NCBI GenBank assembly: GCA_017507905.1
Contig: JAFWAA010000031.1
Span: 1 to 51,686 of the forward strand
Direction of reading: 5' to 3'
Length of the DNA: 51,686 nucleotides
Origin: Clostridia bacterium
Lineage (GTDB): Bacteria; Bacillota; Clostridia; Oscillospirales; CAG-272
The notes beneath the pieces are model-generated. The model made no database searches, had not been told where the DNA came from, and saw nothing but the letters and a program-made list of their open reading frames with translations. The position numbers and the translations under genes were made by a program. Shown here in pieces: positions 15,903-20,522 of this stretch. The stretch's first letter is position 1. Each line of letters starts with the position of its first letter.

Positions 15903-16499
15903 TCAACGCTTGCGGCGCTTATTCTGCAGGCGCTCTCTCTCGGTCTCGTTGACGTAGGAGCTGAAGGCCGAGGTGAATTTGACGTCACGCAATCCGAGAT
16001 TGTAGGTGATCGCCGAAAGAAGCATGGCCGGGATCGGGAGCAGGAAATAGACCCACCAAAAGGAATTGAGCGGCACACCGCCAACGGGAATGGCAAGCAG
16101 TCCCACGAACATTCCCTCCAGAATCGTTGCGGCAAAGGCACCGATCGCACCGAGATGGCTGGTAAAGGGGGTATCCAAAAGCGAGCCGAGCATAATAAAG
16201 ATCGCCAGCAGGAAGTTGACCGCATTGGCGGCCAGCGAGATCCAAAGGCCGGTCAGGGGTGCTCTCGGCTTGCGTCCGGACTCTACCGACACGCGGTCGC
16301 GGTAGCCGATGTCCCAGGTCATCGTGTAGAGCAGGAAGAGATAAAACAGGATCGCTCCAACGCTCGTGACGTTGCGCAGGACGGGGCTTTGGGCGTGTCC
16401 TGCCGCGAGGGCAAGCGAAAAGCCGAAGATCGCCGTTCCAAACTGATTGAGGAACATCTTGAGCATATCGTAGGAATAAGTCTTAAAAAAAGCTTTCAT
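15903..16499 (-). CDS. Hypothetical membrane protein (about 4-5 TM)
   Basis: Host-like codon usage, GGAGG RBS, own promoter, hydrophobic segments. Family not recognised. Confidence 0.8.
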   Translation of the reverse strand: MKAFFKTYSYDMLKMFLNQFGTAIFGFSLALAAGHAQSPVLRNVTSVGAILFYLFLLYTMTWDIGYRDRVSVESGRKPRAPLTGLWISLAANAVNFLLAIFIMLGSLLDTPFTSHLGAIGAFAATILEGMFVGLLAIPVGGVPLNSFWWVYFLLPIPAMLLSAITYNLGLRDVKFTSAFSSYVNETERERLQNKRRKR

Positions 16500-16525
16500 G
16501 GTATACCTCCAAAAGGATTACCTCT

Positions 16526-16554
16526 ATTATACCGAAAACCCATGCCGAAAGCAA
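16526..16554 (-). promoter_or_regulatory. sigma-A promoter of membrane-protein gene
   Basis: TTGCTT-17bp-TATAAT. Confidence 0.7.
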
Positions 16555-16603
16555 CCGAAGCGCACAAAAATTTACAATTTATCAACTAAAATATCACGAT
16601 GTG

Positions 16604-16612
16604 TGCTATAAT
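16604..16612 (+). promoter_or_regulatory. Extended -10 promoter of recombinase gene
   Basis: TGCTATAAT, no good -35. Confidence 0.55.
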
Positions 16613-16684
16613 AAAAGGAGGAAAGGCGCAAAACGAGCCGTTTTTTTGCCGCACCGCATCTTTTTTCGGAAAGGAGGAATACGC

Positions 16685-17692
16685 ATGGGAAAGCTGATCT
16701 CGATTCGGGAGTTCTCTCCCCTCATTCAGGAATTCGCCGCCTATAAATCCTCCATTCAGGGCTGCTCGCAAAAAACGGTGGAGGAATATCTGCTCGATCT
16801 GCGCACCTTCTTCCGCTATCTCGTGGCGCGGGAAAAGGATATCGATCCGCACTCCGCGGAGTTTTCTACCCTTGATATCAGCTCTATCGGTCTGCGCGAG
16901 CTGGAAAAGATCCACGCCGAGGATCTCTACGATTTTCTGCTTTACGTCAATCACACGCGCGAAAACCAATGGGCGGCGCGCTCGCGCAAGCTCTCGGCCA
17001 TTCGTTCGCTTTACAAATACCTGGTCAACAAAAAGCACTATCTGGAGTACAACCCCACCACCGACATTGATTCCCCCAAGCCCGCAAAGGCTCTGCCCAA
17101 GGTGCTGACGCTGGACGAGGCCGAGCGCCTGCTGGACGCCGTGGACAAGGATCGCAATTCCCCCACGCGCGTTCGCGATTACGCGATCCTCACGCTCTTT
17201 CTCAACTGCGGAATGCGTGTTTCCGAGCTTGTTGGCATTGATCTGCGCGATCTTGATTCGGATTTTCAGTCGGTGCGCGTTACGGGAAAAGGAAACAAGG
17301 AGCGCATCATCTATCTTAACCAGGCCTGCCAGACCGCGCTTTGCGATTACGCGATCCAGAGGCTGAGCCAGAAATACGCCAAAGTGCATGACCCTGCCCT
17401 CTTTTTAAGCCGCCTGGAAAAGCGCATCAGCGTCAAGACCGTGCAAGCCATGGTCTACAAGTATCTGCGCGCCGCGGGACTCGGCTCCAAGGGATACTCG
17501 GTACATAAGCTCCGCCACACCGCCGCCACGCTGATGTATCAATCCGGGCAGGTGGACGTGCGCGTGCTGAAGGAGATCCTGGGCCACGAGCAGCTCAACA
17601 CCACGCAGATCTATACGCACGTCAGCAACACGGACATCGAACGCGCTATGCAAAAGAATCCCCTCGCAACAAAGAGGAGATCGAAGAAATAA
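16685..17692 (+). CDS. Tyrosine recombinase, XerC/XerD family
   Basis: Complete R-K-H-R-H-Y set (GMRVSEL, GKGNKER, HKLRH, LGHEQL, TTQIY) and an N-terminal SAM-like domain. Start MGKLIS after AAAGGAGG. Confidence 0.92.
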   Translation: MGKLISIREFSPLIQEFAAYKSSIQGCSQKTVEEYLLDLRTFFRYLVAREKDIDPHSAEFSTLDISSIGLRELEKIHAEDLYDFLLYVNHTRENQWAARSRKLSAIRSLYKYLVNKKHYLEYNPTTDIDSPKPAKALPKVLTLDEAERLLDAVDKDRNSPTRVRDYAILTLFLNCGMRVSELVGIDLRDLDSDFQSVRVTGKGNKERIIYLNQACQTALCDYAIQRLSQKYAKVHDPALFLSRLEKRISVKTVQAMVYKYLRAAGLGSKGYSVHKLRHTAATLMYQSGQVDVRVLKEILGHEQLNTTQIYTHVSNTDIERAMQKNPLATKRRSKK

Positions 17693-17729
17693 AGAACGCA
17701 CCCCCGATCGCCAAGGGCGAATTTCACTG

Positions 17730-17763
17730 AAAAAAGCACGTCTGCATCGCAGACGTGCTTTTT
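17730..17763. terminator. Bidirectional terminator after recombinase
   Basis: A6-GCACGTCTGC-ATC-GCAGACGTGC-T5. Confidence 0.9.
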
Positions 17764-17802
17764 GTTGGCCGCGCAGATCTTAAAGTCAAACACCGCCATC
17801 GT

Positions 17803-17881
17803 GGATACAAGGGCGGCCCGTCGCCCTTGATGATATACGCCTCGCTTCGCGCGGCGATGATATGCCAAGCCTGCGGCTTGG
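17803..17881. repeat. Second spacer/hairpin array (ATGATAT spacers, three hairpins)
   Basis: CAAGGGCG/CGCCCTTG; GATGATATAC; CGC-TTC-GCG hairpin; GATGATATG; CCAAGCC-TGC-GGCTTGG. Confidence 0.75.
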
Positions 17882-17931
17882 ATAAAAAAAACGCTGCAGA
17901 AAAGTACCCTTTTCTGCAGCGTTTTTTTTAT
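17882..17931. terminator. Perfect 23-bp inverted repeat terminator (probable original ssrA terminator)
   Basis: ATAAAAAAAACGCTGCAGAAAAG-TACC-CTTTTCTGCAGCGTTTTTTTTAT. Confidence 0.88.
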
Positions 17932-17961
17932 GAGTAATTGGTGAATAGGATACAAAATCCT

Positions 17962-18035
17962 AATGGGTTCATTTTGCAAAATGGGTTCACTTTTTGTAGA
18001 AAATGGGTTCACTTTTTTTGCAAAAAATGGGTTCA
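17962..18035 (+). repeat. Four direct repeats AATGGGTTCA
   Basis: Exact 10-mers at 17962, 17980, 18002 and 18026. Confidence 0.9.
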
Positions 18036-18055
18036 AATTTAACGATTGCCAAGCA

Positions 18056-18796
18056 TTAGTCTTCGTTGTTTTTTGTTATCATTTTCCAAGTCAAAGAACG
18101 TGCGCGGAAATATATATATTCCTCCGTTAATTCTTCTACACTCTCTATGCAGTCGTCAACCCAATAAACAAATCCATCGTGGAACAAAATGTTCGAATCC
18201 ATAATATCGGGCATAGTGTTGTCGTCATAATTGAAGTGTATTAAAACATCCTTTTTAAATTCTAATATAATATCGCATTCCCAACATCCAGTAAATAATA
18301 CACGAACGCAGCTTGAATCATTATAGTTTTCTTTTAATTCATAACTAATGTTTTTTATTCTAGCATCATGAAATCCCCAAGCGGCACTCAATAAATTATC
18401 TGCATCTTTGAGGTTTTTAACTCGTTTCCATTCGCCTGTATCAATGTTTTTGTTTTGCTCTTCTGCAATTTTGATGTATTTTTCATCAACAGGTTTCCCG
18501 TCTTTGATTTGCTTTATTAAGTCACAATTATCCAAAAGCCAAGAATATCCGAAGCAGTCTTTATAAGTTGTTACCATAGATAGTTTAATTTCTTTCTTTT
18601 CGACCATATCTGCAATATCAGTATCTATTATAAAGACCTTTCTTTTAAGAGAAGGCTTCGTATTATATACATTCAGTAATTCAAATTGTTTATTTTCAGT
18701 ATCAAAAACGATTACACACTCATACCATCCGGGATTAAATTTTGCAAATATATGTGAATAGTATTCTCTATTATCAGATACAATTTTTGCAAGCAT
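18056..18796 (-). CDS. AT-rich hypothetical protein (horizontally acquired)
   Basis: 246-aa ORF with AGGAGGTG RBS and its own promoter. Codon usage differs from the host. Contains an FHDA motif. Confidence 0.85.
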   Translation of the reverse strand: MLAKIVSDNREYYSHIFAKFNPGWYECVIVFDTENKQFELLNVYNTKPSLKRKVFIIDTDIADMVEKKEIKLSMVTTYKDCFGYSWLLDNCDLIKQIKDGKPVDEKYIKIAEEQNKNIDTGEWKRVKNLKDADNLLSAAWGFHDARIKNISYELKENYNDSSCVRVLFTGCWECDIILEFKKDVLIHFNYDDNTMPDIMDSNILFHDGFVYWVDDCIESVEELTEEYIYFRARSLTWKMITKNNED

Positions 18797-18824
18797 AAGG
18801 CACCTCCTATAATAAGTTGGTTAT

Positions 18825-18853
18825 AGTATATCATAAAATCATCAATTATGCAA
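18825..18853 (-). promoter_or_regulatory. sigma-A promoter of islet gene
   Basis: TTGCAT-17bp-TATACT with extended TG. Confidence 0.75.
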
Positions 18854-18902
18854 TGACTATTGCAGGTGTATTTTTTTGAATCGCAGTTTTAATTAAGGAT
18901 CT

Positions 18903-18996
18903 ATTTTAACGATTACTCCCACAAATTTAACGAATACACACAATTTTAACGAAACACCATAAAATTAACGAATACCTACAATTTTAACGCAAGCAA
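18903..18996 (+). repeat. Five direct repeats with TTAACG core, period 21/19/19/19 bp
   Basis: Units such as ACAAATTTAACGAATACAC, ACAATTTTAACGAAACACC, ATAAAATTAACGAATACCT, ACAATTTTAACGCAAGCAA. Confidence 0.88.
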
Positions 18997-19154
18997 AAGG
19001 AGACCATCGACCGAAGGAGCAAATAATCTCGGAAGATAGGCTTTCTTTATCGAAAACTGTGATTTTTATGCGTCAAAAGGGCAAAAATACCCCTAAAAAG
19101 CAATAAAAACGCAGATTAGGCACAAATAATTGTATCCTATTCTGCGTTCTTATT

Positions 19155-19547
19155 TGGTGGAGATGAGGAGAATCGAACTCCTGTCCGAAAACCCCTTGAT
19201 AAAACTTTCTTCGTGGGCAGTCTGTTGTTTAGAATTCCCTCGCGAGGACGCGAACAGACACGCTTCCTCTTGCGGTAGCCCTTTTTTGCTTGATCGGTTC
19301 AAGAGCGAACGGCCGATGCAAGTTCACCGCTCAAATGACGCTCAGTCCAAGGCCGCGGTACTCCTTGGAGGAACGGGTGACCCGCAGGTCACGGCACTGC
19401 CGGTTTTACGTCAAACGACGTAAAACTTAGGCAGCCATAGCAACAGTATTGTTGTCGTTTATTGTTTAATGTTAGGCCTTTATCGAGATTGCCCGGCTCG
19501 CCACGCTTATCTTATCGCAGAATCCCCGTCGAAACCATTGCACCCCC
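19155..19547 (-). ncRNA. ssrA: tmRNA
   Basis: 5' GGGGGUGCAAUGGUUUCGAC; 3' GGAGUUCGAUUCUCCUCAUCUCCACCA; G3-U70 wobble; tag ORF (A)DNNTVAMAA-stop at 19456-19427. Directly downstream of smpB. Confidence 0.97.
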
Positions 19548-19569
19548 ATAGTTGTGGGTACGCGGTATT

Positions 19570-19598
19570 ATTATAGCCCTTTTTGTCCGACTTGTCAA
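19570..19598 (-). promoter_or_regulatory. Consensus sigma-A promoter of ssrA
   Basis: Perfect TTGACA-17bp-TATAAT. Confidence 0.92.
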
Positions 19599-19606
19599 GT
19601 CCTTTT

Positions 19607-20083
19607 TCAGCTCTCGTAGGAGCGATCCTTCATGTGTCGGTCAATATCGCGGTTTGCCTGCCGTTCGGCATCGGCATCGCGCTTATCGTAGAGCTTCTTG
19701 CCTCGGCAAAGCCCAAGCTCGACCTTGACGTAGCCCGAAAAATACATGGAGAGCGGAACGAGCGTATACCCCTTCTGCTGGACCAGGCCCTGCAGACGCA
19801 TGATCTCGCGCTTGTGCATGAGCAGCTTTTTATCGCGCATGGGATCGCGGTTGAAGATGTTGCCGTGATCGTAAGGGCTGATGTGCAGTCCTACCGCAAA
19901 AAGCTCGCCCTTCTCAAAGGAGCAGTAGGAATCCTTGAGGTTTGCCCCTCCCTGCCGCAGGCTCTTGACCTCCGTGCCGTGCAGGGCGATGCCTGCCTCG
20001 TATTTTTCTTCTACGAAATAGTCGTGCCACGCCTTTCGGTTTTGCACGATGCTTCTTGTTTTTTCCTGTTTTTTCTCTGCCAT
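19607..20083 (-). CDS. smpB: SsrA-binding protein
   Basis: NRKAWHDY, EAGIALHGTEVKSLR, RDKKLLMHKREI, GKKLYDKR. Confidence 0.98.
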   Translation of the reverse strand: MAEKKQEKTRSIVQNRKAWHDYFVEEKYEAGIALHGTEVKSLRQGGANLKDSYCSFEKGELFAVGLHISPYDHGNIFNRDPMRDKKLLMHKREIMRLQGLVQQKGYTLVPLSMYFSGYVKVELGLCRGKKLYDKRDADAERQANRDIDRHMKDRSYES

Positions 20084-20093
20084 ACCGTCCGCC

Positions 20094-20522
20094 TTATCCG
20101 TTACTGTCGTTGTAGATGATCTCCTCGTCCGGGAAATACAGCCCGAGGAATTCCTTTGCGATCTTGACGATGTACTCCTTGTTTTCGGATTCGTTGATCA
20201 TCGCCTGCAGCTCTGCCTTGCGTGCCTCCCAATCGGTCAGCGCGTCCTTAAGGTCGCTTTCCGACTTCATGGCCTCCTCGTACCTCTCGTAGTCCGAGAG
20301 CAGCTCCTTGACCTGCTCGGCCGAGCCCATCAGCTCATTCAATTCTTCCCGCGTATCCCGAAGGTTATTCAGGGCGGTCTCAAGCTTTGCCCGCTCGCGC
20401 TCAAGCTCGTTGAAGCGCATCAGGCTATTGGCAAATATGCCGATGGACACCACCACCATCACGCCCAGAAGAATGCGCACGAGCAGACTGAGGCTGAACT
20501 GTTTTTTGTTTTCCTTTGCCAT
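20094..20522 (-). CDS. Septum formation initiator (DivIC/FtsB family)
   Basis: Basic N-terminus, one TM helix, a coiled coil and EYIVKIAKEFLGL...EII. Downstream of yabQ. Confidence 0.8.
   Translation of the reverse strand: MAKENKKQFSLSLLVRILLGVMVVVSIGIFANSLMRFNELERERAKLETALNNLRDTREELNELMGSAEQVKELLSDYERYEEAMKSESDLKDALTDWEARKAELQAMINESENKEYIVKIAKEFLGLYFPDEEIIYNDSNG

Follow-up and report, generated by a model that had tools for sequence, protein, structure and literature searches.

Introduction

Staphylococcal cassette chromosome (SCC) elements integrate at the 3' end of a conserved gene with an RNA-related role, form tandem arrays and include recombinase-less members that are moved in trans. 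They measure 10–60 kb, have 15–18-bp direct repeats inside rlmH and use this single target. Here, we describe an element found in a 51,686-nucleotide stretch of DNA from a Clostridia bacterium (contig JAFWAA010000031.1; the whole stretch is called the window below): an AT-rich islet of ~1.2 kb at the 3' end of ssrA, the gene for transfer-messenger RNA (tmRNA). Judged from sequence comparison, the islet appears to be one member of a widespread family of recombinase-less cassettes at tRNA and tmRNA gene ends. The family shares with SCC this type of insertion site, the tandem copies and, as we infer here, mobilization in trans; unlike SCC, its cassettes are ~1 kb long, lack direct repeats, use many tRNA and tmRNA targets and have ends that mimic the tRNA T-arm. 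Its cargo includes possible defence genes; defence genes are also carried by the SCC and pseudo-SCC elements of staphylococci (PMC11470126), which use the large serine recombinases (LSRs) CcrAB and CcrC.

The ssrA islands of Dehalococcoides resemble the family in their insertion at the ssrA 3' end and in the occurrence of tandem copies. These islands are large, encode their own recombinase and duplicate ~20 bp of ssrA; to our knowledge, they are not known at tRNA genes in general. Their position at the 3' end of single-copy ssrA, their tandem arrangement and their site-specific mobilization are described in PMC3146451. CIMEs (cis-mobilizable elements) and integrative mobilizable elements are bounded by recombination sites, lack recombination genes, depend on another element and accumulate at tRNA sites (PMC5704250). 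Like CIMEs, the islet has neither recombination nor transfer genes. CIMEs are deletion derivatives flanked by the attL and attR direct repeats of a known integrative and conjugative element, whereas the present family has no direct repeats or known parent and follows a uniform one- or two-gene design.

With integron cassettes, the family shares mostly single-gene, recombinase-less units, a structured site with an imperfect palindrome, swappable cargo that includes defence genes, and arrays at one docking point. Integrons use the tyrosine recombinase IntI, single-stranded folding of attC and a crossover at one end (between G and TT), and their cassettes are usually promoterless; the cassettes described here dock at any tRNA or tmRNA CCA end, the crossover being proposed to lie midway along a 52-bp joint, and come with a promoter and a terminator of their own. 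The islet junctions are T-run/TG, no IntI was found, and a neighbouring Xer-family protein scores far below the integron-integrase cut-offs. In the Tycheposons of Prochlorococcus, cargo is stacked at tRNA and tmRNA genes, newer units pushing older ones outward (bioRxiv 10.1101/2020.12.28.424599). Our cassettes are likewise stacked beside such genes, but differ from Tycheposons, which have their own (mostly tyrosine) integrase, partial tRNA repeats at their flanks and a length of 10–20 kb. By the features that mark Islander-type islands, the islet stands apart as well: it holds no integrase, and its far end reads T-run / TA / TGAGTAATTGG with no displaced target fragment. We found no published description of this tRNA/tmRNA-end cassette family in the literature searched.

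An Islet between ssrA and Its Terminator

The window belongs to G000, a 1.6-Mb metagenome-assembled genome (MAG) that is 92% complete; G017 is its sister genome. The locus comprises the following features:

17882–17931, no strand: original bidirectional ssrA terminator with perfect 23-nt hairpin arms (fold −33 kcal/mol, z ≈ −9.4)
17930–19154, no strand: inserted cassette (islet) of ~1.2 kb, delimited by composition, by its lack in G017 and by a relative at locus L102
18056–18796, minus: cargo gene, a 246-aa orphan with two beta-rich domains, co-oriented with ssrA
19155–19547, minus: ssrA, with the tag DNNTVAMAA (ARAGORN; Rfam RF00023, 153.7 bits)

The ssrA gene has a perfect TTGACA-17-TATAAT promoter at 19598–19570, with smpB immediately upstream, and its 3'-terminal CCA is the complement of 19155–19157. 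The islet lies exactly between the final base of ssrA and the ssrA terminator. A preliminary description of the locus had proposed an integrase-less insertion at precisely this CCA end, next to a perfect 23-bp terminator hairpin at 17882–17931 and with an interior of ~30% GC as judged by eye. The hairpin is present and its arms are perfect; the computed GC content of 17930–19154 is 31.8%, against 53.8% and 54.4% in the two flanks (~54%); and the single open reading frame (ORF) in the islet (246 aa, 18056–18796, minus strand) matches no recombinase family.

The empty allele that the preliminary description had recommended looking for was found in G017, where the same terminator abuts the CCA end of ssrA directly (...CTGCAGCG-T7-GGTGGAG), in agreement with a discrete insertion exactly at that end. 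The ssrA genes of G017 and G000 are 99% identical, and the nearby xer genes are 95% identical. The empty-site junction reads ...CTGCAGCG-T7-GGTGGAGATG, and the insert is delimited as T-run / (A)TGAGTAATTGG ... GTTCTTATT / TGGTGGAG. Because the empty allele lacks ATGAGTAA, the limits of the insert lie between the terminator T-run and the TG of TGG, and not at the TTGGTG core proposed earlier. Junctions lying off the TTGGTG repeat had been named in advance as the observation that would speak against such a core, and those of G017 do lie off it. The discrete insert thus stands, but its limits move from 17935–19159 to 17930–19154, about 5 bp wider on the left side.

The two copies of the 9-bp direct repeat on which the earlier limits rested, TAATTGGTG at 17935–17943 and TATTTGGTG at 19151–19159, are both present as described. 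The repeat itself is at chance level, since such a 9-mer with at most one mismatch is found 5 times in the window against 5.6 expected. Its left copy falls within a 17-nt end segment that recurs, in variants, across the family: L092, L095, L096 and L107 have AGTAATTGGTGAA or TGTAATTGGTGAA at this position; of these loci, L092 is resolved at tRNA-Arg. What does stand out as significant locally is a perfect 13-bp inverted repeat, GAATAGGATACAA, at 17943–17955 and 19130–19142 (2 found, 0.02 expected).

A Family of Cassettes at tRNA and tmRNA Gene Ends

Besides the window's own left end, 48 related left ends were found in gut Clostridia. The 21-mer AGGATACAAAATCCTAATGGG led to 39 loci in MAGs of gut Clostridia, Eubacteriales and Christensenellaceae and to 9 short contigs, which were all the hits among JGI metagenome contigs. 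A minus-strand tRNA or tmRNA gene lies 0.85–3.3 kb to the right in 19 of the 39 loci, and in several others the right end abuts a 12–27-nt fragment of a tRNA or tmRNA 3' end. The targets were Leu-CAG/TAG/GAG, Ser-TGA/GCT, Arg-CCG/CCT, Gln, Glu, Pro and tmRNA; the resolved right flanks represent 10 tRNA isoacceptors plus tmRNA. The left flank in nearly all loci is a terminator-like hairpin followed by a T-run, often the right end of an older cassette. The closest relative of the islet, at L102 near a tRNA-Pro fragment, has 85% nucleotide identity to it, and the homology stops at the TG of TGG. The same ends, which the preliminary description had proposed to seek at other tRNA or ssrA loci, were therefore located there, and in view of these relatives its suggestion of mobilization in trans is the natural reading. 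Its other suggestion, that of a remnant of a larger island, does not agree with the family, every relative with readable content being small and without a recombinase.

The cassettes measure 0.7–1.8 kb (median ~1.0 kb), apart from a single 3.3-kb member, and their one to three genes are co-oriented with the tRNA. In tblastn searches with the Xer protein or an LSR, no recombinase was detected inside any cassette of the 48 relatives, and no 8-kb locus contained a recombinase ORF except in unrelated neighbouring LSR elements. The LSR beside the L066 cassette and that at L092 were considered as cassette enzymes and rejected, as they belong to separate neighbouring elements. In G074, two cassettes are arranged in tandem, with the right end of one joined to the left end of the other and a joint spacing of 17/16. 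In all, six further species of the genus have parts of both ends.

G000 itself contains a second left end (C37:33233–33327), again after a terminator T-run and bordering DNA of lower GC content. In C37:33233–37398, the left end is followed by DNA of ~45% GC encoding a cysteine-rich repeat protein of >1300 aa. As this gene runs off the contig, some members of the family may carry very large cargo.

Anatomy of the Ends

From left to right, the ends of the window's copy consist of the following parts:

17929–17930, plus: left junction dinucleotide, TA in this copy
17931–17947, plus: 17-nt inner arm of the left end, TGAGTAATTGGTGAATA, which contains TTGGTG
17948–17960, plus: left outer motif GGATACAAAATCC, forming a small hairpin, AGGAT-ACAAA-ATCCT
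17962–18035, plus: four direct AATGGGTTCA repeats, spaced 18, 22 and 24 bp
18038–18045, plus: one TTTAACGA box, at the left end's inner edge
18905–18990, plus: five TTTAACGA-type boxes with a period of ~19 bp, upstream of the cargo promoter
18991–19101, plus: conserved R1 block, ~80% identical between cassettes with different cargo
19102–19154, minus: R1 hairpin followed by a U-run (fold −27.5 kcal/mol, z −6.35)
19155–19156, plus: right junction dinucleotide TG, complementary to the CA that ends ssrA; proposed crossover point

The inner left arm has a constant length of 17 nt throughout the family, with sequence variants such as TGAGTAATTGATGAAAA and TGAAAGGGCTACGAAAA. The left outer motif resembles the tRNA T-loop, and its inverted-repeat partner at the right end lies at 19130–19142, where TTGTATCC (19130–19137) is followed by exactly 17 nt. 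The two tips are dissimilar; the inverted motifs lie 17 nt inside them, and nothing is duplicated except T residues at the junctions. Further inside, relatives have up to four AATGGGTKCA copies at the position of the left-end repeats, a few having none, and the five-box TTTAACGA-type array is kept in the long-form R1 ends of other cassettes. The R1 hairpin and U-run would provide ssrA with a replacement terminator. A structured RNA in the R1 block was also considered and rejected, the covariation being weak (4 of 33 pairs).

Across the family, the distances are more strictly kept than the sequences around them. TG stands exactly 17 nt before GGATACAAAATCC (the GGATACAA motif) in 45 of 49 distinct left ends, and every one of the 21 true right ends has (T)TGTATC(C/A), a spacer of exactly 17 nt and the TG of the tRNA TGG, in this order. 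Both cassette ends thus have TTTGTATCC/GGATACAAA exactly 17 nt from TG, and the joined ends form a 52-bp site, 8-17-TG-17-8, with its centre of symmetry at the TG complementary to the CA that ends CCA. The orientation of the cassettes is constant, as expected of an asymmetric central dinucleotide, with no target duplication beyond the T residues.

A Large Serine Recombinase as Candidate Enzyme

LSR attP sites are ~50 bp long and symmetric around a central dinucleotide, and the motif read by the zinc-ribbon domain is set 5 bp further in at attB than at attP (PMC3783163). The cassette joint is attP-like in length and symmetry, with ~50 bp and inverted half-sites around a non-palindromic central dinucleotide. 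Its outer 9-mer TTTGTATCC (gene strand; GGATACAAA is its complement form) resembles the tRNA T-loop TTCGAATCC. When this motif was compared with tRNA ends, the best match was found at offset 13, in the T-loop, while the motif of the cassette end itself is at offset 18. Over 30 tRNA/tmRNA genes, 5.5 of 9 positions matched on average at offset 13, against a background of ~2.3. In 57 unique tRNA/tmRNA 3' flanks, GGATAC was found only at offset 17 (9 times, in cassette right ends) and at offset 12 (once). The lone offset-12 copy belongs to the tRNA-Met site used by an LSR prophage of G000, and on the terminator side a matching motif in the inward position was seen only at this same tRNA-Met.

Since, on the tRNA side, the cassette motif sits 5 bp further out than the T-loop, as in attP relative to attB, we lean towards viewing the cassette as a satellite whose movement depends on an LSR acting in trans and reading the tRNA T-arm, with the crossover at TG, and we regard this as somewhat probable. 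The ends of a circularized cassette would join into the symmetric 52-bp site, and an LSR supplied in trans would recombine this attP-like joint with an attB made up of the tRNA or tmRNA 3' end and its terminator, crossing over at TG (CA on the gene strand). The donor of the LSR could be a co-resident prophage like that at the G000 tRNA-Met, or a relative with GTATCC specificity. The target gene would be left intact, the cassette bringing a new terminator and placing a cargo gene with its own promoter downstream of it. In G000, the islet would have entered ssrA after the split from G017. The window copy is probably fixed, or locked against excision, because the mismatch between TA on the left and TG on the right would block excision by a serine recombinase.

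The tRNA-Met prophage offers a view of an LSR at such a target. In contig C27 of G000, the 3' end of the LSR gene runs into ...GTCCACCA, followed by a terminator; in contig C10, tRNA-Met is uninterrupted (...GCCCACCA) and has the same terminator. Up to TGGTGG, the two contigs share 108 identical nt. The occupied (C27:1–3043) and uninterrupted (C10:1–180) alleles were both assembled, which indicates that the population sampled is polymorphic for the prophage or that the prophage is excising there. In C27, the reading frame of the LSR continues through the att junction. Six LSR prophage arms (C27, L066, L123, L124, L125 and L127) end in ...CCA followed by a terminator or a cassette right end. 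In all six, TTCG lies 22 nt from the terminal CA, which matches the position of TTTG in the cassettes and is 5 nt beyond that of TTCG in the tRNA T-loop.

Several observations weigh against an LSR of this kind. The LSRs in the same genomes use the same CCA ends, but none is tied to cassettes, and the phage arms carry TTCGGATAG or TTCGAATAG rather than TTTGTATCC; the TTCGGATAG arm of the G000 prophage matches TTTGTATCC at only 6 of 9 positions. The symmetry centre of the prophage attB seems to lie 2–3 nt inside CCACCA and not at the terminal CA. In the cassette joint, the inner 17-nt arms are asymmetric, whereas LSR sites are usually partly symmetric there, and most loci have no conserved motif on the terminator side of the target. 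Arrays such as those of AATGGGTKCA and TTTAACGA are not known from LSR sites. No excised circle, helper element or transfer event was seen. IMG/VR had no match to the left-end 21-mer or to the joint pattern, BLAST with the left end had none among INPHARED phages or PLSDB plasmids, and no parent element with the same ends was found in the genomes, IMG/VR, or the phage and plasmid collections examined.

Alternative Explanations

A tyrosine recombinase acting in trans, either a helper integrase or the host Xer, would account for the same family, target and junction, with T-run/TG as a short overlap, in a manner akin to Xer-exploiting elements or pdif modules. The direct-repeat arrays do look like the arm-type sites of a lambda-like attP, and the TTTAACGA boxes, which we take to resemble the outer XerD arms and the R' boxes of integrons, point the same way; moreover, an Xer-family gene, the sole tyrosine recombinase detected by tblastn in the genome, lies 240 bp from the ssrA terminator. 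That gene is found at the same place in the empty-site G017 (95% identity), and no tyrosine recombinase was found within the 48 family loci, which include two other tmRNA loci; as the integrase of the islet, it was rejected on these grounds. The 17-2-17 spacing does not suit a 6–8-bp overlap flanked by 9–13-bp core sites, and the left end has no displaced tRNA fragment or identity block, which makes a tyrosine recombinase improbable. Spread by homologous recombination between framework segments after DNA uptake, the junctions dating from a few ancient events, seems slightly less probable still. The framework blocks (100–250 bp, ~80–90% identity) could act as homology arms, the window and L102 share cargo and the R1 end but differ in their 17-mers, and close cargo homologues are found with other end types. 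Homology with one tRNA is insufficient, however, because the same ends abut at least 10 tRNA species and tmRNA with single-nucleotide precision, and TG and both 17-nt spacings are far better conserved than the adjacent sequence.

We hold out little prospect for the cassettes being non-autonomous derivatives of a single-strand transposon (HUH/Y1, IS200/IS605-like) or of another transposon that targets terminator hairpins. Hairpins near both ends, insertion directly after a hairpin and T-run, fixed orientation and the lack of target duplication would all fit such an element, but the end motifs are inverted, with double-strand symmetry, rather than Y1-type same-strand hairpins; the right flank is always a tRNA or tmRNA 3' end or fragment, not any terminator; and no such transposase was seen in any locus. 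It is less probable again, and very much so, that the islet descends by decay from a larger ssrA island that carried an integrase. While ssrA is a classical island target and the xer-ssrA region is variable in the genus, the members readable over their full length (0.7–3.3 kb) have both ends conserved and hold no integrase or integrase fragment, and the far end of the islet has no displaced ssrA fragment. Two further classes were rejected: a DDE transposon (an insertion sequence or a miniature inverted-repeat transposable element), as there are no inverted repeats at the tips and no target-site duplication, and a group II intron after a terminator. The latter was considered for the GTGAG start, but the cargo gene runs on the other strand, the ends as read show nothing like a domain V 3' end, and an Rfam search of 16000–20500 gave tmRNA and nothing else credible.

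Cargo and Its Exchange

The 246-aa cargo protein belongs to no Pfam or NCBIfam family, and its homologues form 64 clusters, all unnamed. A confident AlphaFold2 model (predicted local distance difference test score, pLDDT, 91.6; predicted template modelling score, pTM, 0.88) is mostly beta and has two domains, with no significant fold match in the PDB (best E 0.05, TM < 0.21). The cargo product would be a two-domain, beta-rich, cytoplasmic orphan protein. Upstream of the ORF, AGGAGGTG lies ~6 nt before the start, and there is a weak promoter match.

Other cassettes carry TIR, RES-like, GNAT, pyrophosphatase-like and lipoprotein genes. Because of this company, our guess, made with low confidence, is that the 246-aa gene is most likely an accessory gene of the defence or immunity type. 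At L078 (3626–8000; = L100), a left end is followed by genes for a lipoprotein, a TIR-domain protein (345 aa), a RES-like protein (375 aa) and an IS3-type transposase, a set that represents possible defence cargo. A gene for a four-helix bundle (TIGR02436, 23S rRNA intervening-sequence protein/Avd-like; 115–121 aa) is tRNA-proximal in many cassettes (L064, L066, L070, L077, L079, L086, L090, L092, L098, L099 and L101), always beside a hairpin array of the kind described below.

The same cargo recurs at different targets: a 147-aa gene at tRNA-Leu and tRNA-Gln, a 124-aa gene at tmRNA and tRNA-Arg, and a 163-aa lipoprotein gene at tRNA-Ser and tRNA-Arg. Cargo and end types are reshuffled, with the same cargo found between differing end types, and distant homologues of the 246-aa protein are encoded in ordinary islands without cassette ends. 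Cargo is swappable between cassettes.

A broader picture, possible but more doubtful than the trans-acting LSR itself, is that this clade of gut Clostridia runs an integron-like cassette economy on tRNA and tmRNA CCA ends by way of such a T-arm-reading enzyme, with the hairpin arrays and four-helix-bundle genes as further parts. One- or two-gene units with their own promoter and replacement terminator would then be captured, stacked and exchanged at nearly every tRNA gene. If this is true, a single recombinase could serve dozens of chromosomal targets and leave them undamaged, by reading the invariant T-arm and cutting at the CCA end, and uncultured gut anaerobes would hold a reservoir of small, self-contained accessory and defence cassettes that island finders miss by seeking an integrase and a displaced tRNA fragment. 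Being short and defined, the 52-bp joint and tRNA-end target would also make a possible multi-site landing system. For annotation, the family would account for much of the odd AT-rich DNA and repeat arrays downstream of tRNA genes in these genomes.

Neighbouring Features and Other Miniature Elements

Two further features lie to the left of the ssrA terminator:

16601–17692: Xer-family tyrosine recombinase gene, with host-like GC content and its own terminator (profile searches)
17790–17881, no strand: right arm of a GATGATAT/hairpin array, truncated here but complete in G017

The Xer-family protein scores below both the XerC and the XerD equivalog cut-offs, and G000 may have a single-recombinase Xer system. 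In G017 (L002, G017:C190, ~940–1500), the xer-ssrA interval contains a 128-aa gene and the complete, two-armed hairpin array; G000 has deleted both, leaving the right arm of the array. This piece is apparently the remnant of an older cassette-like unit. The window copy of the array had no Rfam match.

The arrays consist of variable, perfectly paired hairpins separated by constant 9-mer spacers (TATATCATC three times, a centre, GATGAKATA three times), followed by a terminator, and lie 3' of at least seven tRNA/tmRNA genes. Besides the window copy, G000 has them at C19:150–340, C27:32450–32900, C29:3380–3500, C43:32440–32690, C59:38830–39030 and C37:33150–33230; of the window and C37 copies, only the right arm is left. 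Cassettes in other genomes have this array as their tRNA-proximal end, and sister array types have GATTTCATC, GTGAAATA or ATCATT as spacers.

Units of ~170 bp were also observed, each composed of three parts: 17–27 nt copied from the 3' end of a tRNA or tmRNA, in which the T-loop is altered (AATCTGAAC); ~105 nt of GC-rich sequence that holds a GGCGAAATTGCCGC...GCGGCAATTCGCAG hairpin; and a terminator. They occur in 2–3 tandem copies by ssrA or tRNA genes, at L027 (G008:C315) 1–420, L071 4810–5000, L068 3720–3905, L057 9400–9560 and G000 C29:3520–3690, and look like a second kind of miniature tRNA-end element.

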